A program made the translations under genes and the position numbers. The notes under the pieces were generated by a model that was given only the letters and a program-made list of their open reading frames with translations, did no database searches and was not told the origin of the DNA. Source: an uncultured Rickettsiales bacterium (GTDB taxonomy: Bacteria; Myxococcota_A; UBA796; UBA9615; CAYRNR01). Taken from it: a stretch of DNA of 64,000 nt. The stretch spans positions 14,612 to 78,611 of the forward strand of contig CAZLEO010000002.1 in NCBI GenBank assembly GCA_964558555.1, read 5' to 3'. Shown here piece by piece: positions 4,831 to 42,438 of the stretch (its first letter is position 1; each line of letters starts with the position of its first letter).

Positions 4831-4836
4831 GGCGGG

Positions 4837-5268: not shown

Positions 5269-5467
5269 GATTCCAACCTCGTTGCGCGTGTTTCCCGTGT
5301 TCTCAGCGCCAGCGAAGGTGCGCATCGTAGCTCAAGCCAACGATCAGGGCTACTTTGCCCTCTCCGATTCGCCAGCGCCACCCCCTTTGTGCAGCGCCTC
5401 GTTCACCCTGCGTTTCACCCCACCTGGAGAAATCTTGCGCCGTTCGTGGTGAAATGATCGTCTGGCG

Positions 5468-19672: not shown

Positions 19673-19752
19673 GGTTCCCTCCCGGGGGGTCGCTGGGGGA
19701 GGGGATGCTACCAGAGTTCGCCGGCGGACGGCTCGTGGCTTAGGATGGAGTC

Positions 19753-25200: not shown

Positions 25201-25346
25201 ACGTCGGACAGGTCGGGGATGGCGTCCACGGGGGTGGTCAGCAGGGCCCACACGCCGCCGGCGATGAGCATCAGCAGCCCGATCAGCACCATCACGCGGT
25301 TGCGGATGCTGGCGTCGATGATGCTGGCGACGAGGCCGCGTTCCAC
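22218..25346 (-). CDS. CusA/CzcA-family heavy-metal efflux RND transporter, inner-membrane pump
   Basis: 1042 aa with 12-TM RND architecture, typical of the HME-RND family. The 3' end overlaps the kinase gene end by 20 nt, convergent. Confidence 0.9.
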   Translation of the reverse strand: MERGLVASIIDASIRNRVMVLIGLLMLIAGGVWALLTTPVDAIPDLSDVQVIVVTDHPGQAPQVVEDQVTYPVATALLSVPYARNVRGYSFFGLSMVYVIFEDGTDQYWARSRVAEALDAAADRLPEGANPRLGPDATGVGWIYQYTLTSDRHDLSELRSIQDWYLRYELTALDGVSEVASVGGFVRQYQVEVDPEKMRAHGVSLAQVKRAIQRSNGDTGGRLVEIAETEFMVRSQGYLRSIEDLQIVPVGIDPVRHTPVLLQQIAHVHLGPELRRGLVEMNGQGEVVSGIVVMRSGENALRVIERVERRLDELAEGLPEGVVVHTSYDRSTLIHRAIDNLTAKLLLEMLVVALVIALFLLHLRSSLVAVLTIPTGVLAALLVMRILGINANIMSLGGIAIAVGVMVDASVVMVENLHKHRERTPDLPHIQLVQRSAREVGPALFFSLLIITVSFLPVFTLQQQEGRLFTPLAWTKTFAMAASAVLAVTVVPVLMVYLVRGRIRPEGRHPITRASIALYRPVLRAALRFPVLTVLVAVALTLATAWPAARLGTEFMPPLNEGDLLYMPTTPPGISIAEAREVLQRTDRIIASHPQVAHVLGKAGRAETATDPAPLSMLETTILLTPTEQWPDGKTIEDVIAELDQMVQFPGLTNSWTMPIRTRIDMLATGIKTPVGVKIMGDDLQQLADVAEQIEGALRTHPDTHSVYADRVMGGHYLDIDVDRVEAARYGLTVADVQDVVRSAIGGMNVTWTVEGLERYPVNVRYPRDLRDDPEALKRIAVPTPLGHAVALGQVADVGLSDGPAAIKSENARQTAWVYVDLRTGDIGGYVRDARRLVEAEVDVPDGVSVAWSGQYEYMQRANRRLLLMIPLTLGLIFLLLYAHFRSIVESGLVMLSLPFALVGGVWLLALADYNLSVAVGVGFIALAGLAAETGVVMLVYLDEAFHRWQREGRLNTVGALRASIVEGAVERLRPKLMTVATTVLGLVPVLLGTEAGSRVMKRIAAPMVGGMVSSLVLTLVVLPALYLLWRRAQRFLRRPEP

Positions 25347-25356
25347 CGGGTCCTCC

Positions 25357-26568
25357 TCAGTGATCGTGGCCGCGCCGGGACAGCAGGTCGGCGGTGGACT
25401 GGCGCAGCTGGCTCTCCGAGTCGAGCAGGAACTGGCCGGACAGGACGATCTCCTGGCCCTCGTCGAGGCCCGCGAGGATCTCGGTCTCGCCGTTGCCCAC
25501 CAGGCCGGGGATCACATCCACGGCGCGGAACAGGCCGTCGCCCTCGGACACGTAGACCGAGTTGCTGTCGCCGGATCGCAGGATGGCCTCGGTGGGGACC
25601 TTGAGCACCCCCTCGCGGCCCTGCACCCGCAGGGTCACCGTGGCGAACATGCCGGGTCGCAGGGCCAGGTCCGGGTTGTCGAAGGTCAGGCGCACGCGGA
25701 GCGTGCGGGTGCGCTCGTCCAGGGTCGGGTAGAGGTAGTCCACGGTGCCGAGGTAGCGCACGCCCGGGGCGTGGCTGGGTTCGAGCGTCGCGGACTGCCC
25801 CTCGGCGACCCACGGCGCGTCGAACTCGTAGACGTCGGCGAGCACCCAGATGCGGTCCAGGTCGCCGATGTGGAACAGGTCGGCGCCCGCCTTCACGGCC
25901 GAGCCCTCCACCACGTCCTTGTGCAGTACGTGGCCGGCGGCGGGGGCGTACACGGCCACGGCGCGGGAGGCCTGGCCGGCCGCGGCGACGGCGTCGATCT
26001 GGCCGGCGCCCAGGCCCAGGTGCTCCAGCCGCGCCCGGGCGGACCGCGTCAGGGCGGCGTCCTCACCCGACGTGCGGCGGGCCAGCAGGTACTCCTCCTG
26101 GGCAGAGACCAGCTCGGGGCTGTACACGTCCAGCAGGGGCTGGCCGCGGCGTACCTCGTCGCCGGTGCGCGACACGTGCAGGCGCTCGACCCAGCCGTCG
26201 AAGCGCAGGTTGACCGCGTGCAGCTCGTCTTCGGCCACGGCGATCTCGCCGACGGTGCGCACGCCCCGGTCCAGGTCGCCGCGCGTGACCGCGCCCAGCC
26301 GCACACCCATGTTCTGCACCACGCCGGCGTCGAGCTGGAGCTCGGTGACCGCGCCGTCCATGGGCTTCATGGGCGTCAGATCCATCTTGCAGATGGGACA
26401 GAGGCCGGGCCCCTCCTGGATGACGTTGGGGTGCATGCCGCAGGTGTGGAGATCCTCGGCCGGGCCGGCCTCGTGGGCATGGCCGTCGGCCTGGGGAGCG
26501 TCTCCTTCCACATCGAGGAATCCGCAGCCGCTCAGCAGCAGCAACACGACGGTGATCCAGGCTCTCAT
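25357..26568 (-). CDS. CusB/CzcB-family efflux RND periplasmic adaptor with N-terminal heavy-metal-binding domain
   Basis: Lipoprotein signal LLLLSGCG. N-terminal CGMHP...CPICKMDL metal-binding module. A membrane-fusion-protein beta-barrel/lipoyl region follows. RBS GAGGAGG. Confidence 0.85.
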   Translation of the reverse strand: MRAWITVVLLLLSGCGFLDVEGDAPQADGHAHEAGPAEDLHTCGMHPNVIQEGPGLCPICKMDLTPMKPMDGAVTELQLDAGVVQNMGVRLGAVTRGDLDRGVRTVGEIAVAEDELHAVNLRFDGWVERLHVSRTGDEVRRGQPLLDVYSPELVSAQEEYLLARRTSGEDAALTRSARARLEHLGLGAGQIDAVAAAGQASRAVAVYAPAAGHVLHKDVVEGSAVKAGADLFHIGDLDRIWVLADVYEFDAPWVAEGQSATLEPSHAPGVRYLGTVDYLYPTLDERTRTLRVRLTFDNPDLALRPGMFATVTLRVQGREGVLKVPTEAILRSGDSNSVYVSEGDGLFRAVDVIPGLVGNGETEILAGLDEGQEIVLSGQFLLDSESQLRQSTADLLSRRGHDH

Positions 26569-27830
26569 CGGTCCTCCTCGTCGAACACCACACCGCACAG
26601 CCGCTGCACCTCCACCTGGGCGAGGTGGACGTCCACGCCGGAGACGACGGCGTCGCGCTGCATGGCGAGCACCCGCTCCCACGCCTGCACGAGGGTGGGG
26701 AACGCCGCGCGGTCCACCTGATAGGCGGCCAGGGTGGCCTCCCACGTGGCGCGCGCGCCGGGGACCAGGTCCTCGCGGTGGCGCCGCTCTCGATCCGCGG
26801 CGCGTTCCCAGCGGGCCAGGGCAGCGTCGAGCTCCCCCTGCACCCCGGCGCGGGCCGAGTCGAGCTGGTCTGCGGCGGCTCGTGAACGGGCCTCGTGCTC
26901 GGCGGCGCGCGCGCCCCAGCGGCTCTTCGCCGCGGTGGGTAGCGGAATCGCGATCCCCAGCGACGCCTGGTTCATCCCCTCGTCCATGCCGTCGATGGGG
27001 GCGCGGACGCGGTAGCCGGCCCAGACGGTGAGGTCGGGGTGGGCCTCCTGCCGCGCCGCGTCGGCGGCCCGCTGCTCGGCGTCGGCCGCCGCGGCCCCGC
27101 CGCCCAGGGTCGGGCTCTCGCGCAGGGCCGTCTCCAGCAAGGGATCGCGGCGCGGGACCGGCGGCAGGGGAGCGAGGTCGCCGGGGGTGACGACCTCGAG
27201 CGTCCCGTCCAGCTGGACTGCCGCGGCCAGCCCGGCGAGCACCTCGCGTTCGGCGCGGCCGTGGTCCTCGGCCACCTCGTTCAGGTGATCGCGACCCAGC
27301 TGCGCCGAGAGCAGCTGGTACTGCTCGGCGCGTCCCACCTCGTAGCCCGCGCGGACCGCCTCGACGAGCTGTCCGGCCAGGTCCACCTGCTCGTGGGCCA
27401 GGGCGCCGAGCTGGCGGTGCAGGGTGAGGTTCCAGTAGCCGCGACGCACGGCCGCGGCCAGGTCCACCTGCGCTGCGCGCAGCGCCTCGTCGGCCACCTC
27501 AGCTTGCGCCTCGGCGGCGGATCTGCGGTGGGTGAGGGTCCCCGGAGCCAGCAGGGACTGACGCACGGACAGCTGCACGCCGCTCATGGGGTGCACGCCG
27601 GGGTAGGGGGCGGTCACCGGCATGTTGGAGTACTCCAGGCCCAGCAGCGGCTCGGGGCCGGCGCCGGCCTGGGTGATGCGGTGATCCACGGCCGCTGCCT
27701 GCGCCTCGAGGCTCGACAGGGTGGCGTTCGCCTGCAGCGCCGCGCGGACGAGGTCGTCGGGACCCTCCGCGGCGGTCGCGGGTATCGTGGTCGCCGCCAG
27801 GAGGGCGAGCGTGGCCAGGGCGCGGATCAT
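26565..27830 (-). CDS. TolC/CzcC-family outer-membrane efflux protein
   Basis: Signal peptide followed by two OEP coiled-coil/barrel repeats. Its stop overlaps the adaptor start (ATGA). Confidence 0.8.
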   Translation of the reverse strand: MIRALATLALLAATTIPATAAEGPDDLVRAALQANATLSSLEAQAAAVDHRITQAGAGPEPLLGLEYSNMPVTAPYPGVHPMSGVQLSVRQSLLAPGTLTHRRSAAEAQAEVADEALRAAQVDLAAAVRRGYWNLTLHRQLGALAHEQVDLAGQLVEAVRAGYEVGRAEQYQLLSAQLGRDHLNEVAEDHGRAEREVLAGLAAAVQLDGTLEVVTPGDLAPLPPVPRRDPLLETALRESPTLGGGAAAADAEQRAADAARQEAHPDLTVWAGYRVRAPIDGMDEGMNQASLGIAIPLPTAAKSRWGARAAEHEARSRAAADQLDSARAGVQGELDAALARWERAADRERRHREDLVPGARATWEATLAAYQVDRAAFPTLVQAWERVLAMQRDAVVSGVDVHLAQVEVQRLCGVVFDEEDR

Positions 27831-27838
27831 CGACTCGA

Positions 27839-28273
27839 TCAGCCCTCGGCCGGTCTGGCGATGAAGGACTGCGGGTCGGCCTCGAACCTGCCCTGGCAGC
27901 CGGGGCAGCAGTAGCCGTAGTACTTGCCGTCCACCACCGAGAACACGGTCTTGTCCGTGACCAGGAAGGCCTCCCCGCTGACGGGACAGATGCCCTTGGC
28001 GCCGATGTCCGGCTTGCCGCCCCAGGACTTCACGGCGCCCTCCGGGTCCACCTTGGCCATGCCCTCCATCTCCATGGCGGCCTCGCCTGCGGTGGCCTCT
28101 TCGGCCGTGGCGGCGTGGTCGGCCTGCGCGTGTCCCTCGTGGTCCACGTGGGAGTGGGCGGCGTGGTCGTGGTCGTGGGCGTGCTCGTCAGCGGTGCCAC
28201 CACACGCGGCGATGTTCAGGGCGGCCAGCAGGCCGAGGGTCAGGGTCGAGAGGGTGACGGTCGACTTGATCAT
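27839..28273 (-). CDS. His-rich periplasmic metal-binding lipoprotein with YHS domain (probable Cu/heavy-metal chaperone)
   Basis: Signal peptide plus lipobox LNIAACGG. His-rich stretch [26 protein letters not shown] motif ICPVSGE...[14 protein letters not shown]. First gene of the efflux operon. Confidence 0.8.
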
Positions 28274-28526: not shown

Positions 28527-29600
28527 ATGCCGACCCGGGCCGAGTCCATCCACGAGGAAGTCCAGCGGGCCATCGAGCGCGCGAAGCGCAGCGCGCCCGG
28601 CTCCGAGCAGGAGCAGGCCGATCTCGCAGAGCGCATCGCGCAGCTGCTCGAGGAGAAGGACGCGATCCTGGTGGCCCACTACTACACCCGGTCGGAGCTG
28701 CAGGAGCTGGCCGAGGCCACGGGCGGAATCGTGGCGGACTCGCTGGAGATGGCCAAGTTCGGCAATGCTCACCCTGCGTCCACGCTGGTGGTGTGCGGTG
28801 TGCGCTTCATGGGGGAGACCGCCAAGATCCTCAACCCCGAGAAGACCGTGCTCATGCCGGACCTGGAGGCCGACTGCTCGCTGGACCTGGGCTGCCCGGC
28901 CGACGAGTTCGCGGCGTTGTGTGACGCTCACCCGGACCGGACCGCCGTGGTCTACGCCAACACCAGCGCCGCGGTGAAGGCCCGCGCCGACTGGGTGGTG
29001 ACCTCGGGCATCGCCCTGAAGATCGTGGGGCACCTGCACGAGCGCGGCGAGAAGATCCTCTGGGCGCCCGACCGCCACCTGGGATCGTACGTCCAGAAGG
29101 AGACCGGCGCGGACATGATCCTGTGGGACGGCACCTGCGTGGTGCACGAGGAGTTCCGCGCCGAGGAGATCGACGCCCTGGTCGAGCGCCACCCCGGCGC
29201 CCGGGTCCTCGTCCACCCCGAGTCGCCGGCCGCGGTGATCGAGAAGGCCCACGTGGTGGGCTCCACCAGCGCCATGATCGAGGCCGTGCGCACCGGCGAT
29301 GCCGACACCTACATCGTCGCCACCGACCGCGGCATCTTCCACGAGATGCAGCAGGCGTCGCCCGGCAAGCGTCTCATCGAGGCGCCCACCATCGGCGTCG
29401 GCGCCACCTGCCAGTGCTGCGCCCACTGCCCGTGGATGGAGATGAACGGCCTGCGCGACCTCGTCGAGGTCCTCGAGACCGGCCGCAACGAGATCCTCGT
29501 GGACCCGGCCGTGGGCCGCGAGGCCATGGTCTCGCTGCAGCGCATGATCGATTTTTCGATGAGTCTGGATCAGCCCGTCCTGGGCCAGTGCACGGTCTAA
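28527..29600 (+). CDS. nadA: Quinolinate synthase A
   Basis: Conserved NadA blocks [47 protein letters not shown] and VHPE, plus a C-terminal Cys-rich [4Fe-4S] region [18 protein letters not shown]. Confidence 0.9.
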
Positions 29601-29735
29601 CTCCCTGAAATCTCGGCAGTTGCATAGTCCATCGATTTCGTGGAATTAGTTAGAGCTAACGTATATATGTATATTCTTATATTTGACTATGCGTGATCGA
29701 GTGGGTAGGGTTTCCTCGAATCCTGGAGGAACTCG
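29601..29735. promoter_or_regulatory. AT-rich (~35-40% GC) intergenic island upstream of the arsR-psr operon; it contains TTGACT (-35-like) and short inverted repeats that may be an ArsR operator
   Basis: cgatttcgtggaattagttagagctaacgtatatatgtatattcttatatttgactatgcg. This is the lowest-GC stretch in the window. GTTAG-AG-CTAAC is a short inverted repeat. Confidence 0.5.
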
Positions 29736-30074
29736 ATGCCACCCAAGATCGACCTCGACCCCCAGCTCTTCGAGATACAGGCGGAGTTCTGCCGGATGAT
29801 GGGCAACCGCAACCGGCTGATGATCCTCCACGCCCTGCGCGAAGGAGAGATGTGCGTGTCCGATCTCACCGAGATCCTGGGCGTCTCGCAGCCGGTGGTC
29901 TCCCAGCACCTGGCAGTGCTGCGCAAGCTCGGCGTGGTCCTCATGCGCCGGGACGGCCAGCACGTCTTCTACAGCCTGTCCGACCCCAACATCTCCAGCG
30001 CGTGCGACATGATCCGCGCCATCCTGCAGCGCACCGTGCAGGCGCGCTCGGAGGTCCTGGGAGGGAACTCCTGA
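29736..30074 (+). CDS. ArsR/SmtB-family metalloregulator or redox-sensing transcriptional repressor
   Basis: Winged-HTH with the RLMILHAL...LGVSQPVVSQHLAVLRKLGVV signature. Cys at EMCVSDL (compare the ArsR ELCVCDL metalloid site) plus a C-terminal Cys89. The stop overlaps the start of the molybdoenzyme gene (TGATG). Confidence 0.85.
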   Translation: MPPKIDLDPQLFEIQAEFCRMMGNRNRLMILHALREGEMCVSDLTEILGVSQPVVSQHLAVLRKLGVVLMRRDGQHVFYSLSDPNISSACDMIRAILQRTVQARSEVLGGNS

Positions 30075-32323
30075 TGGCACCCGTCAGCCGAAGGCAATTC
30101 ATCAAGATCGGGGCCGCGTCGTCGGCCGGAGTCGCCGCGGGAGCGGCCCTGGCGCCGTCCTTGCTACGGCCCCGCCGGGCCCTGGCCGCGCACGATCCCA
30201 CGCCCGACGACGTCCAGATCAGGCACAGCTACTGTGAGATGTGCTTCTGGAAGTGCGCGGTGCGGGCGTACGTGTCCGGTGACCGCATCTGGAAGCTCGA
30301 GGGCAACCCCGCCGATCCGTTGACCCGAGGGCGGCTGTGCCCCCGCGGCACCGGCGGGATCGGCACCTACACGGATCGCGATCGTCTGCGCACCCCCCTG
30401 ATCCGCACCGAACAGCGGGGCAAGCAGGTGTTCCGCGAGGCGAGCTGGGACGAGGCGCTGGGGTACATCGCCGACAAGCTCGACCACGTGAAGAAGACGT
30501 GGGGCCCGTCGAGCGCTGCGCTCTTCTACCACGGCTCTGGCGGCGCCTACCTCAAGGAGCTGATGAAGGCCTACGGCTCGGCCAACGTGGCCGCGCCCAG
30601 CTACGCCCAGTGCCGGGGCCCGCGCGAGGCCGCGTTCCAGGTGACCTACGGCCGGGGGGTCGGCTCGCCCGAGAACACCGACATCGCCAACACCCGCTGC
30701 CTCGTGCTCATCGGCAGTCACCTCGGCGAGAACATGCACAACTCCCAGGTGCAGGAGTTCTCCCGGGCCATCGACCGCGGCGCGGACATCATCGTGGTGG
30801 ACCCGCGCTTCTCCACCGCCGCGGGCAAGGCCAGGCACTGGCTGCCCATCCGTCCGGCCACGGACGTGGCGCTGTTGCTGGCGTGGATCCACGTGATCAT
30901 CGAAGAGGAGCTGTACGACGAGCAGTACGTGGAGCGGTACACCTACGGCTTCGACCAGCTGCGGGCGGCCGTGGCCAGCAACACCCCGGAGTGGGCCTGG
31001 CCCATCACCGGCATCGAGCCGGCACAGATCCGCGAGACCGCCCGCGCCATGGGCCGCGCCGCCCCGGCCACGCTGGTGCACCCGGGCCGTCACGTCACCT
31101 GGTACGGCGACGACACCCAGCGGTCCCGCGCCGTGGCCATCCTCAACGCGCTGCTGGGCTCGTGGGGGCGTCGCGGCGGGTTCTACGAGCCGGCCAGGGC
31201 CCGGATCCCCAAGTACCCGTACGCTGACACCGAGGCCCCCGAGCACACCTGGCGCACGACCCTGGGGGGCCGGTACCCCATGGCGAACCTGGCCCTGGCC
31301 CACGAGCTGGCCGACGCGTCCACGCCGCGGCCCGTCGACGCCCCCGACACCAAGGCCTGGATCGTGTACGGCACCAACCTGTCGCTGACCCTGCCGGACT
31401 TCGGCAGCATCCAGGAGAGGATCCGCGATCTGGAGCTGCTGGCGGTGGTGGACATCCTGCCGTCCGAGATCACCGGCTGGGCCGACGTGGTGCTGCCGGA
31501 GGCCGGCTACCTCGAGCGCGGTGACGACCTGAGGCTGTCGCCGTACAAGTCCCCGTCCATCGCGCTGCGCGATCCGGTGGTTCCCCCGGTGGGCGACTCC
31601 AGGCCGGGCTGGTGGATCACCAAGCAGCTCGCCGAGAAGATGGGGCTGGGCGACCACTTCCCCTGGAACGACCTCGACGAGTACCTGCGAGCCCGCCTCG
31701 ACGGCACCGGGATCACCCTGGAGCAGCTGCGCGCCGAGGGTGTCGTGCGGCTCCCCGACCAGCCCATCTACTGGGACGAGGGCCTGGCACCGGCCTTTGC
31801 CACGCCCAGCGGCAAGATCGAGCTGTACTCGACCGCCCTGGCCGAGGCGGGCTTCGACCCCGTCCCCACCTACACCCACCACGAGCAACCCCCGCCGGGC
31901 TCGTTCCGGCTGCTGTACGGCCGCTCGCCGGTCCACACCTTCGGCCGCACCACCAACAACCCGCTGCTGCTGGAGGTGGAGGACACCAACGTGGTGTGGA
32001 TCAACGCCGACGCGGCCGCCGACCTCGGCATCGAGTACGGAGACTGGGTGACGCTGACCAACCAGGACGGGGTCACCTCCAACCGCGCCCGCGCCAAGGT
32101 CACCCAGGGCATCCGCGCCGACGCCGTGTACGTGGTCCACGGCTTCGGCCACACCAGCAAGTCGATGCGGGCGTCGTACCTCAAGGGAATCGACGACGCC
32201 GGCCTGATCACGCGGTTCAGCCGCGACCCGATCATGGGCGGCACCGGCATGCGGGGGAACTTCGTGACCGTGACCAAGGTGGACGGGCCGGCACCCGGCG
32301 CGCACGGGGAGGAGGTGGCCTGA
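30074..32323 (+). CDS. Molybdopterin oxidoreductase catalytic subunit, PsrA/PhsA-type (polysulfide/thiosulfate reductase-like), Tat-exported
   Basis: Twin-arginine signal SRRQFIKIGAASSAGVAAGAALA. N-terminal [4Fe-4S] motif CEMCFWKC...C (C-x2-C-x3-C-xn-C). 749 aa, typical of PsrA/PhsA rather than ArrA or TtrA. MGD-binding domain layout. Confidence 0.8.
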   Translation: MAPVSRRQFIKIGAASSAGVAAGAALAPSLLRPRRALAAHDPTPDDVQIRHSYCEMCFWKCAVRAYVSGDRIWKLEGNPADPLTRGRLCPRGTGGIGTYTDRDRLRTPLIRTEQRGKQVFREASWDEALGYIADKLDHVKKTWGPSSAALFYHGSGGAYLKELMKAYGSANVAAPSYAQCRGPREAAFQVTYGRGVGSPENTDIANTRCLVLIGSHLGENMHNSQVQEFSRAIDRGADIIVVDPRFSTAAGKARHWLPIRPATDVALLLAWIHVIIEEELYDEQYVERYTYGFDQLRAAVASNTPEWAWPITGIEPAQIRETARAMGRAAPATLVHPGRHVTWYGDDTQRSRAVAILNALLGSWGRRGGFYEPARARIPKYPYADTEAPEHTWRTTLGGRYPMANLALAHELADASTPRPVDAPDTKAWIVYGTNLSLTLPDFGSIQERIRDLELLAVVDILPSEITGWADVVLPEAGYLERGDDLRLSPYKSPSIALRDPVVPPVGDSRPGWWITKQLAEKMGLGDHFPWNDLDEYLRARLDGTGITLEQLRAEGVVRLPDQPIYWDEGLAPAFATPSGKIELYSTALAEAGFDPVPTYTHHEQPPPGSFRLLYGRSPVHTFGRTTNNPLLLEVEDTNVVWINADAAADLGIEYGDWVTLTNQDGVTSNRARAKVTQGIRADAVYVVHGFGHTSKSMRASYLKGIDDAGLITRFSRDPIMGGTGMRGNFVTVTKVDGPAPGAHGEEVA

Positions 32324-32862
32324 TGCCTCGCTTCGCCATGACCATGGACACGCGCAAGTGTGTGGGCTGCTCCGACTGCGTGCTCGCGTGCAAGAACGAG
32401 AACCAGTTACCCGAGGGGCTGGCCCGGGACTGGATCGTCAGGGAGACGGGCGGGCGGTTCCCCGACCTGTGGCAGGAGATCCGCTCGGAACGGTGCAATC
32501 ACTGCTCGAACGCCCCGTGCGTCCACACCTGCCCCACGGGCGCGAGCCACGTGGACCGCGACACCGGCGTGGTCCTGGTCACGCCCCACGAGTGCATCGG
32601 CTGCAAGTCGTGCATCGCCGCGTGTCCGTACGACGCGCGCTACATCCACCCCGAGGGCCACGTCAGCAAGTGCACCTTCTGCATCCACCGGACGAAGGAA
32701 GGTGAGAATCCCGCCTGCGTCTCGGTGTGTCCCACGTACTCGCTGGAGTTCGGCGATCTCGACGATCCCGACTCCGAGGTCAGCAAGCTCCTGGCAAGCC
32801 GCAAGTACAAGACCCTGCTGCCCGAGGCCGGCACCCGGCCCAACGTCTACTTCCTGGTGTGA
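32323..32862 (+). CDS. 4Fe-4S ferredoxin-type electron-transfer subunit (PsrB/PhsB/NrfC-like)
   Basis: Four Cys clusters (CVGCSDCVLAC, CNHCSNAPCVHTCP, CIGCKSCIAACP, CTFC...C). Start overlaps the upstream stop (TGATG). Confidence 0.85.
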   Translation: MPRFAMTMDTRKCVGCSDCVLACKNENQLPEGLARDWIVRETGGRFPDLWQEIRSERCNHCSNAPCVHTCPTGASHVDRDTGVVLVTPHECIGCKSCIAACPYDARYIHPEGHVSKCTFCIHRTKEGENPACVSVCPTYSLEFGDLDDPDSEVSKLLASRKYKTLLPEAGTRPNVYFLV

Positions 32863-32874
32863 GGGGATACGACG

Positions 32875-33822
32875 ATGGAACGCGAGATCGAGATCATTTC
32901 GGGTCGCATGAATCACGAGATCGACCCCCACCTGGAGATCTGGGGCTGGGAGCTGCCCGCCTACTTCTTCCTGGGGGGGCTGGCCGCGGGCGTGCTGATC
33001 CTGTCGGCCGCGCTGCTGTTGTCGGGCAAGGAGGAGCGCTACCCCGCGGCCGTTCGGTACGCGCCTCTGGTGGTCGCTCCGGCGCTGGGGCTCGGGCTGG
33101 TGCTCCTCATGCTGGACCTGAGCCATGTGTGGCACTTCTACCACCTGTTCCTCACCTTCGAGCCCACCTCGCCCATCTCCTGGGGTACGTGGTTGCTGAC
33201 CCTGGTGATGCCCTTGTCGGTGGTGTACGCCTTTGCCGTACTCCCGCGGACGGTGTTCCTCAACTGGGTGCGGATCGAGCTGCTGCTCCCCATCCACGAC
33301 CGGCTCCAGCCCATCGTCCGCCCCCTGGCCGTCGTGCTGGCCGTGCTGGCCGCCGGCGTCGGTATCTACACCGGCGTGCTGCTTTCCACGCTGCAAGCCC
33401 GGCCGTTCTGGAACTCCAACGTGCTCGGCGCCCTGTTCCTGTCGTCCGGGCTGACTGCGGGCACGTCCGTCGCGCTGCTGGTCGCCTGGCTCGAGCACGA
33501 GCGCAAGCTCCTCGCCACGGTCCTCATGGGCACCATCGGCGTGGAGCTCGTGCTGCTGCTGCTGTTCGTGCTGGGGCACGCCACCGGCGGTGAGGCCTCC
33601 CAGCAGGTGGCCCACATGCTGCTCGGGGGCGAGATGGCCCTGCACTTCCTGGTCTTCGACGTGGCCGTCGGCCTCGTCGCGCCGCTGCTGCTGCTGGTGT
33701 TCCAGCTCAGCGGCCGCGCCCGCTACACCCCCATCGCGCCGCTGCTGGCCCTGTTCGGCGGCGTGATGCTCCGTCTGACCATGGTCCACGGCGGCCAGAT
33801 CACCCAGTGGCTGCCGTACTAG
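32875..33822 (+). CDS. NrfD/PsrC-family polytopic membrane anchor (quinol-interacting subunit)
   Basis: About 8 TM helices with NrfD-family topology. Located directly downstream of the A and B subunits. Confidence 0.8.
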   Translation: MEREIEIISGRMNHEIDPHLEIWGWELPAYFFLGGLAAGVLILSAALLLSGKEERYPAAVRYAPLVVAPALGLGLVLLMLDLSHVWHFYHLFLTFEPTSPISWGTWLLTLVMPLSVVYAFAVLPRTVFLNWVRIELLLPIHDRLQPIVRPLAVVLAVLAAGVGIYTGVLLSTLQARPFWNSNVLGALFLSSGLTAGTSVALLVAWLEHERKLLATVLMGTIGVELVLLLLFVLGHATGGEASQQVAHMLLGGEMALHFLVFDVAVGLVAPLLLLVFQLSGRARYTPIAPLLALFGGVMLRLTMVHGGQITQWLPY

Positions 33823-33833
33823 GAGAGGGACGC

Positions 33834-34346
33834 ATGTCCAACGTACCCAAGCGATACGTCAACCCCTACGTCTCCGGGCTGCTGCTCGGCGTCGTGCTGT
33901 TCAGCGCCCTGTTCGTGGTGGGACGCGGCCTGGGCGCGTCGGGCGCGATGATGCGGACGGCGGCCCACGCGACCGAGATCGTCGCCCCCGAGGTCGTCGA
34001 GGCCAACGCGTACCTCGGCCGGTACGCCGAGCGGAGCCTGCTGGACGACTGGCTGTTCATCGAGATCCTCGGTGTGGCCGTGGGCGCGCTGCTCAGCGCC
34101 GCGCTGGGCCGACGGTTGAGGTGGGAGATCCTCAAGGGGCCGCGCATGAGCGGCGCCGCGCGGCTGGGGCTCGCCCTGCTCGGCGGCGGGATCTTCGGCT
34201 TCGGCGCCCGCCTCGCCCGGGGGTGTACCTCCGGGCTCGCCCTGTCCGGCGGGGCCACCCTCGCCCTGGGCTCCATGGTGGGCATGATGTGCATCTTCGC
34301 GGGCGCCTACGCGTTCGCGTACTTCTTGCGGAGGCAATGGATCTGA
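33834..34346 (+). CDS. YeeE/YedE-family sulfur-compound (thiosulfate-type) transporter, N-terminal half-size protein
   Basis: Family motif FGFGARLARGCTSGLALSGG (GC-x-SG) with ~4 TM helices. RBS AGGAGAGGG. Confidence 0.7.
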   Translation: MSNVPKRYVNPYVSGLLLGVVLFSALFVVGRGLGASGAMMRTAAHATEIVAPEVVEANAYLGRYAERSLLDDWLFIEILGVAVGALLSAALGRRLRWEILKGPRMSGAARLGLALLGGGIFGFGARLARGCTSGLALSGGATLALGSMVGMMCIFAGAYAFAYFLRRQWI

Positions 34347-34945
34347 TGGCACCTCTGGCCAAGGTAGGAGAGTGGGCGCCCCAGATCGGGCTGATCGCGG
34401 CGTTCGTGATCGGGATCGGCTTCGGCTGGGCGCTGGAGATGGGCGGGCTGGGCAACTCCCGCAAGCTCGCCTCGCAGTTCTATTTCCGCGACCTGACGGT
34501 CTTCAAGGTCATGTTCACCGGCATCGTCACGGCCATGCTGCTGATGTTCGGCGCCGGCGCCCTGGGGTGGATGGATCTGTCGCTGGTCTACCTCAACCCC
34601 ACGTTCCTGTGGCCGATGGCCATCGGCGGCTTCGTCATGGGGGCCGGCTTCGTCGTCGGCGGGTGGTGACCGGGCACCTGCGTGATCGGTGCGGTCACGG
34701 GAAAGATAGACGGTCTGATGTTCCTCGTCGGCGCCATGGGCGGCATGCTCGCCTTCGGGTTCGCTTACCCCGCCGTCGAGGGTCTGTTCATGGCCGGCGA
34801 GATCGAGGGCTCACCCACCGTCGCGTCGTGGCTCGGCGTCCGCCCGGGCGTCATCGCCCTGGGCATGACGGTGGTGGCGGTCGTCGGATTCATCGGCGCC
34901 CATTGGGCCGAAAAGCGCTTCGGAGAGGGGCCGGTACAGCCATGA
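34346..34945 (+). CDS. YeeE/YedE-family transporter second half, interrupted by an in-frame TGA at 34667-34669; either a selenocysteine recoding candidate or a pseudogene
   Basis: ORFs 34346..34669 and 34670..34945 are in the same frame with one TGA between them. Joined, they give a ~199-aa half-transporter with GFVVGGW-[TGA]-PGTCVIG. The TGA sits within one residue of the GG-C position conserved in the family. Start overlaps the upstream stop (TGATG). Confidence 0.5.
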
Positions 34946-35622
34946 GCTTCAGATGGGAGTACATCGCAGCGGGCCTCGGCCTGCTCCTCGCCGTCGGCGT
35001 GGCCTCGAGCCGGGCCGGCGTCGGTACCATGGGCGCCTGGGAAGCGGTCGGCCGCCCCGCCGAGGCCGTCCCTGCCGACGTCGTCGCCCCTGCCGACGTG
35101 CCCCCCGCGGGCGTCCCGGCTATCACCGCGGACGAGCTCGCCGCGGATCTGCTGGCCGGCGCCCCCGGCCTCACCGTGGTGGACGTGCGCGCTGCTGACG
35201 AGTCCCCGGCCGACCGCATCCCGGTCGCGTACTGGATGCCCCTCGACGACGCCGGGTGGCAGCCGCCGGGGCCGTTCCCCGAGCACCGCCGTCTCGTCCT
35301 CGTGGCCGCCGCCGCGGACACGGCCGAGGCGGCCTGGAGCCACGCGCGCGGCCTGGGCTACGAGCGCGTCGCCGTGCTGGACGGCGGTCAGGCCGCCTGG
35401 AACGCGAGGTACGGAGATCCCCAGGAGCCCGGGGCGGACGCCTCCAGGCTCGACTGGCAGGACTACCGGGCCCGACGGGCTGCCTCCCTGTACCTCACCG
35501 GGGGCTTCGGCGCCCTCGACCAGGGCGCTCCTGGCAAGGGATCGGAGCCCCCCGCTGCAGCGCCTCCCCCGCTCCCGGCGCGGCGGCTGGCCACCAGCCC
35601 CGGGTCGGGCGAGGGCTGCTGA
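34942..35622 (+). CDS. Rhodanese-homology-domain protein with no catalytic Cys (predicted inactive or regulatory), N-terminal TM anchor
   Basis: Rhodanese fold signature LTVVDVRAADE...IPVAYWMP...RRLVLVAAAADTAEAAW, with Ala in place of the active-site Cys. Start overlaps the upstream stop (ATGA). Confidence 0.6.
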   Translation: MSFRWEYIAAGLGLLLAVGVASSRAGVGTMGAWEAVGRPAEAVPADVVAPADVPPAGVPAITADELAADLLAGAPGLTVVDVRAADESPADRIPVAYWMPLDDAGWQPPGPFPEHRRLVLVAAAADTAEAAWSHARGLGYERVAVLDGGQAAWNARYGDPQEPGADASRLDWQDYRARRAASLYLTGGFGALDQGAPGKGSEPPAAAPPPLPARRLATSPGSGEGC

Positions 35623-35712
35623 CAACCGGGAATCCGAGTCCGGGCAGCCACAGCGTGAATCTCCATCGAGCCCCGATGGCTCTATGCAGATGAACCCCGG
35701 AGGACGAACCCC

Positions 35713-36117
35713 ATGTCCACGACCGAACTCGGACACACGCTGCGATTCACCGACACCCCCTTCGACGCCGTGGTCGAGCGCACCACCGCGGCGCTGGCCG
35801 ACCAGGGATTCGGCATCATCACGGAGATCGACGTCAAGGCCACGATGAAGAAGAAGCTCGACGTCGACGGCCTGCCCTACAAGATCCTCGGCGCCTGCAA
35901 CCCCGGCTTCGCCCACAAGGCGCTGACCGCCGATCCGCAGATCGGCCTGCTGCTGCCGTGCAACGTCATCGCCTACGAGGGCGACGACGGCGCCGTCACC
36001 GTGTCCATCGTCAAGCCCGAGAAGATGTTCGAGCTCGTCGACGATCCGCGCATGGGCGAGCTGATGGGCGAGGTCTCGGAGGCGCTCGTGAAGGTCCGCG
36101 ACGCCCTCACCAGCTGA
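35713..36117 (+). CDS. DUF302-family small protein
   Basis: 134-aa protein with FGIITEIDVKATMKKKL...YKILGACNPGFAHKAL, typical of DUF302. Commonly found in sulfur-metabolism neighbourhoods. Confidence 0.6.
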   Translation: MSTTELGHTLRFTDTPFDAVVERTTAALADQGFGIITEIDVKATMKKKLDVDGLPYKILGACNPGFAHKALTADPQIGLLLPCNVIAYEGDDGAVTVSIVKPEKMFELVDDPRMGELMGEVSEALVKVRDALTS

Positions 36118-36192
36118 TCCCCGCGTCGTCCCGTCCAGCCACCAGCCTGCTCCAACTTGGTACAATGGGTGCCTCTGGAGAGGGGTACCCGA

Positions 36193-38043
36193 ATGAAAAA
36201 CTGGTGGCTTTTTTGTGGGCTGATCTGTTCTCTGGGCCTGGTCGCGAGCGGCTGTGACGGTGGTGACGGCAGTGACGACGACGACGACGTCGGCGCAGAT
36301 GACGACGATGACGACACGAGCGACCCGGGAGACCCCGAGGACCTCGACCGCGTCGCCCTGAACCACTACACCGTGATGCTGGTCGGCCAGGGGGACAGCG
36401 AACAGATCGTACCCACGGCCTACGACTCGGAGGACCGGATCATCGACACCGAGTTCACGTTCGAGTCGCTGAGCCCGGGGGTGATCGACGTCTCGGCGGA
36501 CGGCGTGGTCACGGCATCGGCCGAGCTGGGATCGGCCGTGATCCTCGTGTACGTGGACGGCGAGCCGTGGAACTTCGCCTACTTCTTCGCCGCGCACCCG
36601 AAGGAGGGGGCGCTGGTCTACACCGAGGAGCAGGTCGTGGGTGACGTGGAGTGGCACGTGGACGGCTTCACCTCGCTGGTGGGGATAGAGCACACGGTGA
36701 CGCTCTCGGGCATCGAACCGCCTGCCGTGGGGACCGCCGTGCTGCCACGACACGGCGACTGGGCGGCCGGCCTCGTGGTGTCCACCGAGGCCGTGGGGGA
36801 CGACACGGCCGTCACGCTCGCGACCGCGCCCCTGACGGCGCTGTTCGAGGACCTGCAGCTGGAACACCGATACGACATCGACACCATCACGGAGACCTTC
36901 GACTCCGGGCGGGAGTACGACTTCGAGGCCGGCGAGTTCGAGTGCACCGCAGACTCGGAGATCTGGCTGGATCCGCCCGAGTACACCGGCGAGTTCACGG
37001 CCACGCTGTACGTGGGGCTCACCTACGTCATCTCGTCGGGTGAGCTCACCGCGGCCGAGCTGCTCGCGGGCGGGGACATCGCGCTGACCCTGGACACGTA
37101 CCTCATCTTGCCGTCCGGCTGGCTGGGTACGGTCCGGTGTGACAAGGCGTTCACGCCCCTGACCACCAAGACCCTCCCCGGCGGTCCGCTCACGAAGTAC
37201 ATCGAACCCGACATCCCCTGGGGCGCCGGCTTCGAGCTGGTCGGAACCCTGGGCGGCACCGACGCTCAGGTGGGCGTGATGGCCGACGTGGAGATCGCCC
37301 TGGAGATCGGCCTGGCCTACGACCCGGAGGAGGGGCTGACGATCATCGATCAGTTCGAGGCCGAGGAGACCATCGAGCCCTACATGACGTTCCCGACCCC
37401 CGAGGACAACCTGTACGCCGAGTTCAGCGCCCATGCGTTCACCACCGCGGGCCTGGGCATGGTGCTCGAGGACCTGCCGTTCCTCGAGAACGACGTTCGC
37501 CTGGACATCGCGCGGGCCCGGTTCGGACCCAAGGTGAGCGGCGAGGTGGCCACCCCCCTGGGGCAGGTGCTGCTCGACGACTACCGCTCCCACTACGACA
37601 TGGGGCTGGCCTGGGACTTCGAGGGTTGTGCCGCGGCTCAGCCGTTCCTGGCCAGCATGGGCATCGACACCGCCGTGGACCTGTCGTCGCTGGGAGAGAC
37701 GCCCCTGTTCCACTCCCCGTCCGGCACCGTGACCGCGGACGCGACCACGGTGGCCGTGAACGAGCCCGTGACGGCGACGATCGCCCTCGAGGATCTGTTC
37801 TTCTATCCGTCCACCTACAACCTCACCTCCCTGGACATCTACAAGTACGACGGCGTCGAGGTCGAGCTGGTCGACTCGTACGAGCCCGTCGACCCCGAGG
37901 ACACGTTCGACTGGGTCTGGACACCCGACGCCGAGGACGTCGGTACGCACACGTTCTACGCGTTCACCCAGACCGATCTCGTCCCCCTCGTCCCCTTCGA
38001 GGTGTCCGAGGACGCCTCCTTCGTCGTGGAGGTCACGCCCTGA
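36193..38043 (+). CDS. Hypothetical secreted lipoprotein with poly-Asp linker
   Basis: Signal plus lipobox LVASGC, followed by DGGDGSDDDDDVGADDDDDDTSD. RBS GGAGAGGGG before ATG 36193. An alternative TTG start lies at 36157. Confidence 0.6.
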   Translation: MKNWWLFCGLICSLGLVASGCDGGDGSDDDDDVGADDDDDDTSDPGDPEDLDRVALNHYTVMLVGQGDSEQIVPTAYDSEDRIIDTEFTFESLSPGVIDVSADGVVTASAELGSAVILVYVDGEPWNFAYFFAAHPKEGALVYTEEQVVGDVEWHVDGFTSLVGIEHTVTLSGIEPPAVGTAVLPRHGDWAAGLVVSTEAVGDDTAVTLATAPLTALFEDLQLEHRYDIDTITETFDSGREYDFEAGEFECTADSEIWLDPPEYTGEFTATLYVGLTYVISSGELTAAELLAGGDIALTLDTYLILPSGWLGTVRCDKAFTPLTTKTLPGGPLTKYIEPDIPWGAGFELVGTLGGTDAQVGVMADVEIALEIGLAYDPEEGLTIIDQFEAEETIEPYMTFPTPEDNLYAEFSAHAFTTAGLGMVLEDLPFLENDVRLDIARARFGPKVSGEVATPLGQVLLDDYRSHYDMGLAWDFEGCAAAQPFLASMGIDTAVDLSSLGETPLFHSPSGTVTADATTVAVNEPVTATIALEDLFFYPSTYNLTSLDIYKYDGVEVELVDSYEPVDPEDTFDWVWTPDAEDVGTHTFYAFTQTDLVPLVPFEVSEDASFVVEVTP

Positions 38044-41276: not shown

Positions 41277-42416
41277 ATGCTCGCCGAGGAGGGACCCGTG
41301 CGCACTTCTCTGTTCGTCGCCCTGACCGCGGTCGTCGGCTTGCTCGTCGGCTGTGGGGACGAGGCGGCGGACGACTACGCGCCGGACGACGACGCGGTGG
41401 GCGACGACGACGTGGCTTCGGACGACGACGTTGCTGCGGTGCCCGTCGAGATCACCGAGACCTACCCCGTCGCCGGGGCCACCGACGTCTATCACCGCAA
41501 CGACCTCATCGTGTGGTTCGACGGGATCGCGGATCAGGTCGAGACCACGCTCGTCGACGACGACGGAGATCCCATCGAGGGGGTACTCGCGTTCAACAGC
41601 GAGTCCGCGTCCACGACCGTGGCAACGTTCGATCCCTACGGCGAGAGCGAGAACCAGCACCTCGATCCCAGCACTGCCTACACTGCGACCGTGACCTGGG
41701 TCCATCACGATCCCGTCACCTGGGAGTTCGTCACGAGCGAGGTCGGAGCGCCGGTCACCGACGTGGCCTCGCTGGTCGGGCGTGACTTTCGGCTGGACCT
41801 GGCCTCGGCCCGCTTCACCCAGCCAACCGGGGTGGGCAGCCTGCTGGGGCAGTACCTGGGCGATCTGGATCTGATCGCCCACATCGCGTCCATCGAGGAC
41901 ACGGACATCCAGATCCACGTCGGGAGCGTGGAAGTGGCGGACGGTGCCTACACGCAGGACCTGTGCGATCCCACGCTGGCCATGACCAGCGTGGACGGCG
42001 ATCCCGGTCCTGGGCTCTTCGACAATCCCTACGTGCACTTCGGCCCGGGCGATCTCCACCTGGCCATCGAGGGGTACGAGGCCACGCTGCTCCACGTGGA
42101 GATCGGCGTCAGCTTCACCGCGGACGGTGCCGCCCTCGCCGGTGGGACGCTGGACACGTTCATGGAGGTGGTGGGGGTCGGCTTCCCCGAGGATCCGGGC
42201 GCCGAGTGCGACTTGCTGGAAACGCTCGGGATCGAGTGTGTCGACTGCCCGGATGGGTCGGGGGAGTATTGCCTGCCCGTGTCCGCCTTCGACATGGCCG
42301 GTGAGAGGGTCGATGTCAGCGGAGTCCATCCCGAGACCGGTGAGCCGACGCAAGGATTGGTGGAGGTGACCGAGGAGATGATCACGGCCTGGAGGGCCGA
42401 GGACCTCTGCCCCTGA
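41277..42416 (+). CDS. Hypothetical lipoprotein with poly-Asp linker
   Basis: Signal plus lipobox LLVGCG, followed by DEAADDYAPDDDAVGDDDVASDDDVA. The overlapping minus-strand ORF 41226..43331 is Ser/Arg-rich antisense noise. Confidence 0.55.
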   Translation: MLAEEGPVRTSLFVALTAVVGLLVGCGDEAADDYAPDDDAVGDDDVASDDDVAAVPVEITETYPVAGATDVYHRNDLIVWFDGIADQVETTLVDDDGDPIEGVLAFNSESASTTVATFDPYGESENQHLDPSTAYTATVTWVHHDPVTWEFVTSEVGAPVTDVASLVGRDFRLDLASARFTQPTGVGSLLGQYLGDLDLIAHIASIEDTDIQIHVGSVEVADGAYTQDLCDPTLAMTSVDGDPGPGLFDNPYVHFGPGDLHLAIEGYEATLLHVEIGVSFTADGAALAGGTLDTFMEVVGVGFPEDPGAECDLLETLGIECVDCPDGSGEYCLPVSAFDMAGERVDVSGVHPETGEPTQGLVEVTEEMITAWRAEDLCP

Positions 42417-42438
42417 ACGCCGCGGAGTAGGAGGGGAC

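Follow-up and report, generated by a model that had tools for sequence, protein, structure and literature searches.

An ArsR-linked Psr/Phs-type reductase operon with a split YeeE channel and a probable selenocysteine codon in its second channel gene

The subject of this study is an operon of eight same-direction genes in a stretch of 64,000 nucleotides from an uncultured bacterium (labelled Rickettsiales, placed by GTDB in Myxococcota_A; contig CAZLEO010000002.1 of assembly GCA_964558555.1, positions 14,612 to 78,611), which is referred to as the window in the following. The operon lies on the plus strand between nadA (28530-29600) and a lipoprotein gene (from ~36157) and reads arsR-psrA-psrB-psrC-yeeE1-yeeE2-rhd-DUF302, i.e. 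a regulator, a three-subunit molybdoenzyme, a two-gene YeeE/YedE-type channel, a rhodanese-like protein and a DUF302 protein. The second channel gene, yeeE2, contains an in-frame UGA and very probably encodes a selenoprotein that gene callers have cut in two. The core organisation of the operon is widespread and has already been noted in the literature, but it has never been characterised. New is the UGA form of this half-size channel subunit, in which a UGA followed by a selenocysteine insertion sequence (SECIS)-like hairpin occupies the position of Cys91 of the channel TsuA, and which is abundant yet unannotated. Also new are the loss of the catalytic Cys in almost all orthologues of the rhodanese-like protein, paired with an invariant terminal Cys, and the α1/α5 Cys pair of the cluster-linked ArsR.

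The in-frame UGA codon of yeeE2

Every database splits YeeE2 into "hypothetical" fragments. Likewise, the first-pass annotation of this DNA counted nine genes and overlooked the in-frame UGA. The supposed two genes, an open reading frame (ORF) of 107 codons ending at 34669 and one of 87 codons starting at 34682, share the same frame and are separated solely by TGA 34667-34669; one channel gene has thus been misread as two because of this codon. Read through, YeeE2 comprises 199 residues and can be matched end to end with many 199-aa proteins at identities of up to 71%. The TGA falls exactly on the near-invariant Cys of the GG[YF]CPGT motif of these homologues, giving GGW-U108-PGTC in the window, where U denotes selenocysteine (Sec). 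Among 71 loci retrieved with PsrA, the codon at this position is TGC or TGT in 66, and TGA in the window's own contigs (identical copies of the locus are found on JGI and ENA contigs) as well as in loci L004 and L006, with 93 and 71% amino-acid identity, respectively. Two further relatives, L205 and L207, carry TGA too, meaning that the codon is kept in four diverged relatives. Moreover, a DNA pattern of the TGA form matched at least 120 metagenome stretches, and 119 of 121 pattern matches proved to be genuine homologues of YeeE2 in which the TGA is in frame, resulting in at least 119 metagenomic TGA forms.

Sequence conservation does not end at the UGA. Differences in the codons that follow are mostly found at third positions, with dN/dS values of 0.05-0.16 against L004, L205 and L207 (dS ~0.4-0.5) and of 0.39 against L006, all of them equal to or below the values obtained 5' of the UGA. 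As TGA is the ordinary stop codon of arsR, psrA, yeeE1, yeeE2 and rhd, the genetic code is standard. The UGA is therefore aligned with a Cys, kept in orthologues and followed by a conserved frame, as in selenoprotein genes. In the clade of the window, a further cysteine, Cys112, is present four residues past Sec108 (U-P-G-T-C), a position occupied by Ser in most homologues; Sec108 and Cys112 would be one helical turn apart, which would allow formation of a selenenylsulfide.

Bacterial SECIS elements are recognised by their distance from the UGA and by a G in the apical loop, a rule that derives from the E. coli fdhF SECIS and from bSECISearch. A hairpin with both properties, CGUGAUCG-GUG-CGGUCACG, begins 11 nt past the UGA and has an 8-bp stem. 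Since whole-region folding is uninformative in a G+C-rich genome (65-74% G+C throughout the window), a positional test was adopted instead. Here, the best perfect hairpin with a loop start 20-28 nt from the U of the UGA is compared with those of synonymous recodings using the sequence's own codon usage. The hairpin of the window, with -10.4 kcal/mol, was matched by only 3.3% of 1000 recodings (p=0.033), and similar values were obtained for L004 (-10.4 kcal/mol, p=0.046) and L006 (-12.8 kcal/mol, p=0.048), whereas the Cys-form relative L007 has no hairpin (-1.9 kcal/mol, p=0.42). Applied to the Sec set of 95 unique sequences, the mean was -10.8 kcal/mol, with p<=0.05 in 77% of the 87 sequences tested against recoding, compared to a mean of -2.7 kcal/mol and p<=0.05 in 4.5% for the 66 sequences of the Cys set; hairpins of -6 kcal/mol or lower occur in 89% of the former versus 15% of the latter. 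Whole-region folding z-scores separate the two sets as well (Mann-Whitney p=5e-9). Loops in the Sec set are mostly GGUC or GGGC, GGUC being the loop of the E. coli fdhF SECIS, and stems of the GGUC-loop class vary little. The bases of the hairpin are invariant in the window, L004, L205 and L207 in spite of the synonymous divergence 3' of the UGA, and the L006 hairpin keeps the register, differing by one compensatory (C-G to G-C) and two one-sided changes.

Gene set, split channel and reductase

The features of the locus are as follows.

29601-29735, +, nadA-arsR intergenic region: AT-rich block, ATAT-N4-ATAT, TTGACT
29736-30074, +, arsR: 112 aa, ArsR/SmtB family, HTH_5
30074-32323, +, psrA: 749 aa, TAT-exported molybdopterin subunit
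32323-32862, +, psrB: 179 aa, 16-Cys ferredoxin
32875-33822, +, psrC: 315 aa, NrfD anchor
33834-34346, +, yeeE1: 170 aa, Sulf_transp half 1
34346-34945, +, yeeE2: 199 codons including one in-frame UGA, Sulf_transp half 2
34667-34669, +, in-frame UGA: candidate Sec codon 108 of YeeE2
34681-34699, +, SECIS-like hairpin: 8-bp stem, loop GUG
34942-35622, +, rhd, rhodanese-like gene: 226 aa, Pfam Rhodanese
35713-36117, +, DUF302 gene: 134 aa, Pfam DUF302

Apart from the gene count and the ArsR cysteines, the earlier description of the locus was largely accurate: orientation and domain calls are all borne out by Pfam and NCBIfam profiles, and the overlaps at the junctions arsR-psrA, psrA-psrB and yeeE1-yeeE2 (TGATG at 30072-30076, 32321-32325 and 34344-34348, respectively) and yeeE2-rhd (ATGA at 34942-34945) are exact. 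The unusual coupling of regulator and catalytic subunit that had been highlighted is real as a 1-nt overlap, but recurs solely in the close relatives L205-L208; in L005 and L006, arsR adjoins psrA without overlap. Following the DUF302 gene, a predicted lipoprotein of 616-628 aa (36157-38043 in the window) is encoded both here and in L205/L206. It has an LVASGC lipobox, an acidic low-complexity N-terminus and a weak Big-like match, and could be co-transcribed with the operon.

YeeE1 and YeeE2 match the Pfam Sulf_transp profile with 70.8 and 39.7 bits (cut-off 27) at profile positions 174-309 and 11-155, respectively. Two adjacent half-size genes thus cover complementary halves of one profile, as in the split forms PmpAB and YedE1E2. 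In alignments to TsuA of Spirochaeta thermophila, YeeE1 covers residues 239-329 with Cys131 of its GCTSG motif on Cys293, and the YeeE2 profile covers residues 6-94 with U108 on Cys91, while the position of Cys22 is Gly. The pair therefore corresponds to a split TsuA with the C-half gene first. By homology, this split channel would retain exactly the two positions essential in TsuA, Cys293 and Cys91. In the Spirochaeta protein, Cys293 binds thiosulfate at a periplasmic indentation and Cys91 is located ~7 Å deeper, both being essential, whereas Cys22 is dispensable in this protein, StYeeE (PMC7449682). The two-gene complex YedE1E2 has been reported to import zero-valent sulfur (PMC10812762), and the assignment of the YeeE halves to sulfur trafficking in the first-pass annotation agrees with this published work. 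Hence, the pair shares the Sulf_transp fold family with TsuA/YeeE (PDB 6leo) and the two-gene composition with YedE1E2/PmpAB. In contrast to these systems, it is split with the C-half gene first, has no Cys22 equivalent and would carry Sec in place of Cys91. Furthermore, no TusA/YeeD partner gene is found here, and the channel genes accompany those of a periplasmic reductase instead of genes for assimilation or persulfide dioxygenases.

Selenocysteine as such is not new to the YeeE/YedE family (PF04143), for which a Sec form with the motif GUxSG, exemplified by WP_012471001.1, has already been catalogued (PMC13188914, PMC9312934). Both that form and the present one are Sulf_transp proteins with Sec, but the protein described here is of half size and its motif is GG[YFW]UPGT, a distinction drawn from the motifs. 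The motif corresponding to GUxSG, GCTSG, is located in YeeE1 and always contains Cys, with TGC or TGT, and never TGA, at the Cys131 codon in 173/173 loci examined. The Sec channel also occurs apart from the reductase. At locus L104, a YeeE1-YeeE2(Sec) pair situated away from Psr genes is followed by the gene of a secreted two-domain rhodanese (4467-5351, oriented on the match), and similar genes are present at L089, L102, L129, L132, L155, L172, L197 and L200; these rhodaneses measure ~294-310 aa and have kept a catalytic Cys (CQTHHR). Such loci indicate that the Sec channel has extracytoplasmic sulfurtransferases as partners in at least two settings.

The catalytic subunit PsrA matches PsrA of T. 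thermophilus (2vpw) over residues 5-740 with E=7e-200 and 669 bits, compared to 143 bits for the ArrA structure 6cz7. The equivalents of His145, the molybdenum ligand Cys173 and Arg332, residues whose roles were reportedly described by Jormakka et al. in 2008, are all identical in the alignment. Among NCBIfam models, PhsA (NF012032) is matched with 486.7 bits, below its cut-off of 694, TtrA with 55 bits and ArrA (NF041714) with 147 bits versus a cut-off of 1600, and this last match covers the N-terminal 290 residues alone. The clade was assigned from these profile and PDB bit scores together with the active-site residues; on that basis, the catalytic subunit is of the Psr/Phs type. It does not side with arsenate reductases, and the first-pass call of a PsrABC/PhsABC-type enzyme rather than Arr or Ttr holds. 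PsrA further displays the TAT motif SRRQFIK and an N-terminal FS0 [4Fe-4S] motif, with Molybdop_Fe4S4, Molybdopterin and Molydop_binding domains above Pfam cut-offs. PsrB contains 16 Cys in four ferredoxin-type groups (Fer4_11 1.8e-26), enough for four [4Fe-4S] clusters, and PsrC is an NrfD-type quinol-oxidising anchor (Pfam NrfD 1.1e-45). Judged by homology, PsrABC is thus a periplasm-facing, quinol-dependent Mo reductase of the Psr/Phs clade. It has the same three subunits as the T. thermophilus enzyme (PDB 2vpw-2vpz), i.e. a TAT-exported Mo-bisPGD subunit, a four-cluster ferredoxin and an NrfD-type anchor, but here the operon adds the split YeeE channel, the rhodanese-like protein with its tail Cys, ArsR and DUF302. 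Another membrane protein resembling NrfD/DsrP (DsrP 63.6 bits) is encoded at 62929-63993 on the minus strand, at the window edge and near a 2-oxoacid:acceptor oxidoreductase alpha subunit (59812-61557); the partner subunits of this membrane protein would fall outside the window.

Rhodanese-like protein, regulator and neighbourhood conservation

The product of rhd has a rhodanese fold (Pfam Rhodanese 30.3 bits, cut-off 22.2), but the catalytic-Cys position of its active-site loop is Ala. This replacement had been pointed out before, and it is general to almost all orthologues: Cys is found in 3 of ~49 aligned sequences and nearly all others have Ser, Ala or Gly, mostly Ser, supporting the earlier view of the domain as non-catalytic. 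What had been overlooked is the Cys at the C-terminus, which reads ...GEGC-COOH in the window. Taking the gene directly after yeeE2 at each locus, a C-terminal [EGR]GC, sometimes with one additional residue, is present at 84/131 loci, including 55/60 genome loci. A homology search with the protein itself yielded 11 close relatives only, and the wider family was taken from gene neighbourhoods. These orthologues measure ~205-225 aa and end in (K/R)n-x-EGC, GGC or GRGC(S/T). A read-through of the rhd stop to a GC-U extension, i.e. a second Sec past the terminal Cys, was considered and ruled out: the stops after the terminal Cys are mixed (TGA 20, TAA 17, TAG 13) and downstream frames are not conserved, so the Cys is the true terminus.

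An AF2 model of the rhodanese-like protein (mean pLDDT 77.6) comprises a hydrophobic helix (6-22), a disordered linker, the rhodanese domain (~60-158, pLDDT mostly >90), a long helix (169-195) and a disordered tail (196-226); Foldseek retrieved single-domain rhodaneses only, with Alr3790 as best match. The flank N-terminal to the hydrophobic helix has a mean charge of +2 versus -0.25 after it, and an N-in topology with the rhodanese domain outside the cytoplasm is predicted. In most orthologues, the last 25 residues are strongly basic (mean +5.5). As the active-site Cys is absent, any carrier Cys would have to be the terminal one. Sud is the rhodanese-type sulfur-delivery protein of the Wolinella polysulfide reductase, and the SoxY carrier arm ends in GGCGG-COOH. 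The present protein would resemble Sud in being an extracytoplasmic rhodanese-type partner of a Psr enzyme and SoxY in its flexible C-terminal peptide with a Cys at the tip. Unlike these two, it lacks a rhodanese active-site Cys, is membrane-anchored and shows no sequence homology to SoxY, which makes both likenesses functional analogies only; it belongs to neither family.

Scanning genomes with PsrA gave more than 590 relatives, of which 80 loci were kept, and the order psrA-psrB-psrC-yeeE1-yeeE2 is present in ~70 of these 80. The core occurs in Ignavibacteriota (Melioribacter, Ignavibacterium, Stygiobacter), Bacteroidota (Marinifilum, Labilibaculum, Sunxiuqinia), Acidobacteriota, Gemmatimonadota, Calditrichota, Opitutales and others, so the neighbourhood is kept far more widely than first expected. 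Nor is the organisation unrecognised, as had been stated. In Ca. Electryonea clarkiae and Caldithrix abyssi, Williams et al. noticed that pmpA/B and a sulfurtransferase gene come after phsABC, a cluster whose function they described as unclear (PMC9324843). The Psr/Phs enzyme MROS_1774 of Melioribacter roseus, which is encoded at L045 in the same psrABC-yeeE1-yeeE2-tail-Cys layout with a MerR-like gene upstream, was found to be induced in arsenate respiration and proposed as a non-Arr arsenate reductase (PMC5492636). The window locus shares its gene order with these three and is a member of that cluster type, whereas their YeeE2 has Cys and they have other regulators or none. Neither the lack of the catalytic Cys nor the invariant terminal Cys nor Sec forms are mentioned in the literature on them.

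The regulator varies: outside the relatives of the window it is MerR-like, TetR or absent. Both ArsR and DUF302 are hence regarded as lineage-specific additions outside the conserved core. The YeeE halves and the rhodanese-like gene belong to the core. The DUF302 protein itself is a clear family member (Pfam PF03625 1.1e-25, 89.7 bits, cut-off 23; PDB TT1751, 1j3m, 3.9e-26) without signal peptide. Its gene is also present in L006 and in L205/L206, and in the latter two it is separated from rhd by three genes, implying that DUF302 is loosely attached to the module. These three genes (8800-13442 in L205/L206) encode a 91-aa Rieske protein, a 291-aa cytochrome b and a 1157-aa protein without Pfam match, a set that suggests a different path for electrons linked to this module. 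Elsewhere, DUF302 genes have been reported in sox clusters.

A second Psr clade was encountered at metagenome loci (L100, L111, L124, L130, L145, L203 and others). Its PsrA shares ~48% identity with that of the window, and its layout is psrAB-X-yeeE1-yeeE2(Sec) followed by a tail-Cys protein (ending KLKLGRGCS) and arsR, with DUF302 on the opposite strand; the membrane subunit X gives no BLAST match with PsrC of the window. Judging from this layout, the association with ArsR and DUF302 recurs independently.

The ArsR protein (Pfam HTH_5 1.5e-18; NCBIfam HTH_metalloreg 92.7 bits; best PDB match SmtB, 1.3e-14) contains three cysteines, Cys19, Cys40 and Cys90, rather than the two at positions 39 and 89 given initially. 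Three architectures place its gene beside a YeeE pair. It precedes psrA in the window, L005, L006, L205-L208 and, more distantly, L076; in the second Psr clade it follows the tail-Cys gene, DUF302 being encoded on the other strand; and at loci lacking Psr it comes immediately before yeeE1. At 38-60% identity across these architectures, the conserved cysteines are Cys19 (QAE-x-C, α1) and Cys90 (AC, α5), whereas Cys40, at the classical α3 position, is confined to the window, L005 and L006. The earlier proposal of Cys40 and Cys90 as sensor pair is thus to be replaced by Cys19/Cys90, and the suggested likeness to the two-Cys sensors BigR, SqrR and HlyU does not extend to the cysteine positions. 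In SqrR, the pair consists of C41 in α2 and C107 at the C-terminal end of α5. The corresponding positions are Leu31/His32 and ~Leu97 here (+10 alignment offset, assuming that chain numbering equals residue numbering), with the partner Cys in α1 instead and Cys90 about two helical turns before the C107 position. In line with this, the score with the NCBIfam equivalog model BigR (60.6) is far below the cut-off of 155, and that with TsoR (60.8) below 115. Nonetheless, BigR, SqrR and HlyU have the same fold and family and a conserved Cys pair including one in α5, BigR-type regulators are also linked to yedE1-yedE2 genes, and the α1/α5 pair could occupy the same region as the sensing cavity of SqrR, which is lined by α2, α5 and α1'. 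R773-type ArsR proteins carry the α3 motif ELCVCDLC. With EMCVSDL, the present protein has one Cys and lacks the CVC of the α3 Cys triad. Because Cys19/Cys90 are conserved, the SqrR positions differ and BigR/TsoR scores are low, ArsR is assigned to an uncharacterised two-Cys (α1/α5) subgroup, as far as its sequence tells. A function as thiol-based sensor is plausible.

Upstream of arsR, an AT-rich block includes ATAT-N4-ATAT (29671-29682) and TTGACT (29683-29688), which may represent a candidate ArsR operator and a candidate -35 box, respectively. The block is conserved in L205 and L207, and related palindromes are present upstream of arsR in L005 (ATATTCGAATAT) and L006 (ATATTCGGATAT). A consensus promoter scan of this upstream region found nothing, and scanning for terminators was equally uninformative.

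Two other regions of the window stand out. At 19744-28273, a heavy-metal-type RND efflux set on the minus strand comprises ACR_tran (1042 aa), a CusB-like adaptor, OEP and a 144-aa His-rich protein ending CPxxG...YYGYCCPGC, and adjoins a sigma54-type response regulator and a histidine kinase on the plus strand. Two giant ORFs (2074 and 2003 aa), whose third-position G+C is coding-like, are located at 42382-48606 and 50249-56260 (plus strand).

Proposed function and rival explanations

On the whole, the operon probably encodes a sulfur-compound reductase with an attached sulfur relay, a reading held with reasonable but far from full confidence. Sulfane sulfur or thiosulfate is the most likely substrate, and arsenate is a possible one. 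By homology, quinol would be oxidised at PsrC and electrons passed via PsrB to the Mo site of periplasmic PsrA, while YeeE1 and YeeE2 would together make up a channel like TsuA, in which Cys131 is on the periplasmic side and Sec108 in the middle. PsrABC may then act, on the outer side of the membrane, as reductase of a substrate of the sulfane-sulfur or thiosulfate type. The Cys-less, membrane-tethered rhodanese domain could act as docking or anion-binding module, and its disordered tail with Cys-COOH as a SoxY/Sud-like swinging carrier arm moving between the channel mouth and the PsrA funnel. Sulfur species might be relayed covalently, by nucleophilic attack, over the terminal-Cys arm, Cys131 and Sec108, and not by hydrogen bonding alone. 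Such a relay would connect the reductase in the periplasm with the sulfur pool of the cytoplasm and with ArsR, a putative cytoplasmic repressor that would be released when channel-imported sulfur (or a metalloid) modifies Cys19/Cys90. DUF302 may serve as accessory protein.

The mid-channel Sec/Cys and the invariant terminal Cys on a disordered arm lead to a bolder generalisation: YeeE/YedE 'transporters' would be covalent sulfur-relay conduits, and the widespread Psr-like complex would reduce sulfane sulfur bound to the SoxY-like arm of the Cys-less rhodanese instead of free polysulfide or thiosulfate. This we offer as speculation that is probably wrong in at least part, though worth stating.

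Several observations weigh against the proposed function or against the selenoprotein assignment on which part of it is built. Caldithrix abyssi has the cluster yet respires neither sulfur nor thiosulfate (PMC5317091), and arsenate induces the orthologue of Melioribacter roseus (PMC5492636), so that the reported physiology of the known carriers is in conflict. The tail in the window's own clade is devoid of the polybasic tract of most orthologues. Moreover, we infer the carrier-arm role of the tail from analogy, and the signal of ArsR is likewise inferred. With regard to Sec, no selA, selB, selD or tRNA-Sec is present in the 64-kb window (ARAGORN; NCBIfam on 20 further ORFs), and an Rfam scan of 29000-37000 at E<=10 detected no SECIS and no other credible RNA family. 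The whole-region folding energy of the window is no better than that of synonymous recodings (z=+0.6), leaving the positional hairpin test as the sole significant folding test for the window itself.

These latter points also bear on the possibility that the TGA is a true stop, with YeeE2 a pseudogene or made as separate 107- and 87-aa peptides, and with the hairpin a side effect of the encoded protein sequence at 70% G+C. Such an explanation could draw on the missing Sec machinery in the window, on the unexceptional whole-region minimum free energy, on a GTG 12 nt past the TGA and on the fact that gene callers in every database split the gene. However, the TGA sits on a near-invariant and functionally essential Cys, has been retained in five diverged lineages besides the metagenomic homologues, and is followed by a region under purifying selection as strong as that preceding it. 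A split at this point would also strip the PGT motif from both pieces, and significant hairpins are far more frequent in TGA than in TGC/TGT forms. A true stop is considered very unlikely.

Turning to the cargo and substrate, the operon might alternatively encode a reductase for the respiration of arsenate or thioarsenate that does not belong to the Arr clade. In that case, ArsR would sense As(III) by its three Cys, the Cys-less rhodanese fold, which is also the fold of the Cdc25/Acr2 arsenate reductases, would bind the oxyanion, and the YeeE pair with the tail Cys would handle As-S species. The case is built mainly on M. roseus, which is without ArrA and in which MROS_1774, the enzyme encoded at L045, is strongly induced in arsenate respiration (PMC5492636), but this evidence is at transcript level only. 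The ArsR family of the regulator and its third Cys at the classical α3 position in the window's clade fit as well; on the other side, the canonical CVC site is absent and ArsR is not part of the conserved core, its place being taken by MerR-like or TetR regulators or by none. The sqr1 plasmid operon of Synechocystis includes a DUF302 gene with similarity to a potential Agrobacterium arsenic oxidase gene (PMC5061849). The active-site residues, in turn, are those of Thermus PsrA, the ArrA model and structure score far below their Psr counterparts or cut-off, and the channel is homologous to sulfur carriers. An arsenate function thus appears unlikely, though it deserves to be kept in mind. Even less probable is a selenium module, in which the Psr-like enzyme would, as SrrABC does in Bacillus selenitireducens, reduce selenite or Se(0) and the YeeE pair would import Se for selenoproteins. 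SrrA is from the same broad group of enzymes, with rhodanese-domain proteins encoded in its operon (PMC12481199), YedE is a predicted selenium-related transporter (PMC9312934), and the channel itself has Sec. But a Sec residue proves the use of Se by the organism, not Se as channel cargo, and the five Sec-coding clusters among the 71 orthologous ones are those of the window's own contigs, L004 and L006, the other 66 having Cys. The match of YeeE1 to the YedE/FdhT model is weak (27 bits, far under the cut-off of 350), and no selD, yedF or other selenium-utilisation gene is found nearby.

The preferred reading, a sulfur-compound reductase with a sulfur relay, has implications beyond this organism. 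The psrABC-yeeE1-yeeE2-tail-Cys cluster is carried by hundreds of genomes of sediment, aquifer and anoxic-water origin, and metagenomic surveys routinely count it as "thiosulfate/polysulfide reductase", although the two studied cultured carriers conflict in their physiology. An enzyme hard-wired to a channel and a terminal-Cys arm offers concrete hypotheses in this respect. As the Sec form is misannotated as two hypothetical ORFs and no NCBIfam model matches YeeE2, it is missed in selenoproteome counts and in metagenome transporter annotation. The natural Cys-to-Sec swap at the TsuA Cys91 position bears directly on how sulfur moves through YeeE/YedE proteins: a selenolate is a nucleophile and not a hydrogen-bond donor, which argues against a pure S-H-S hydrogen-bond model. 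If covalent relay were true, the cluster would encode an undescribed respiratory or detoxifying supercomplex combining a periplasmic molybdoenzyme, transmembrane persulfide traffic and an α1/α5 dithiol ArsR sensor.

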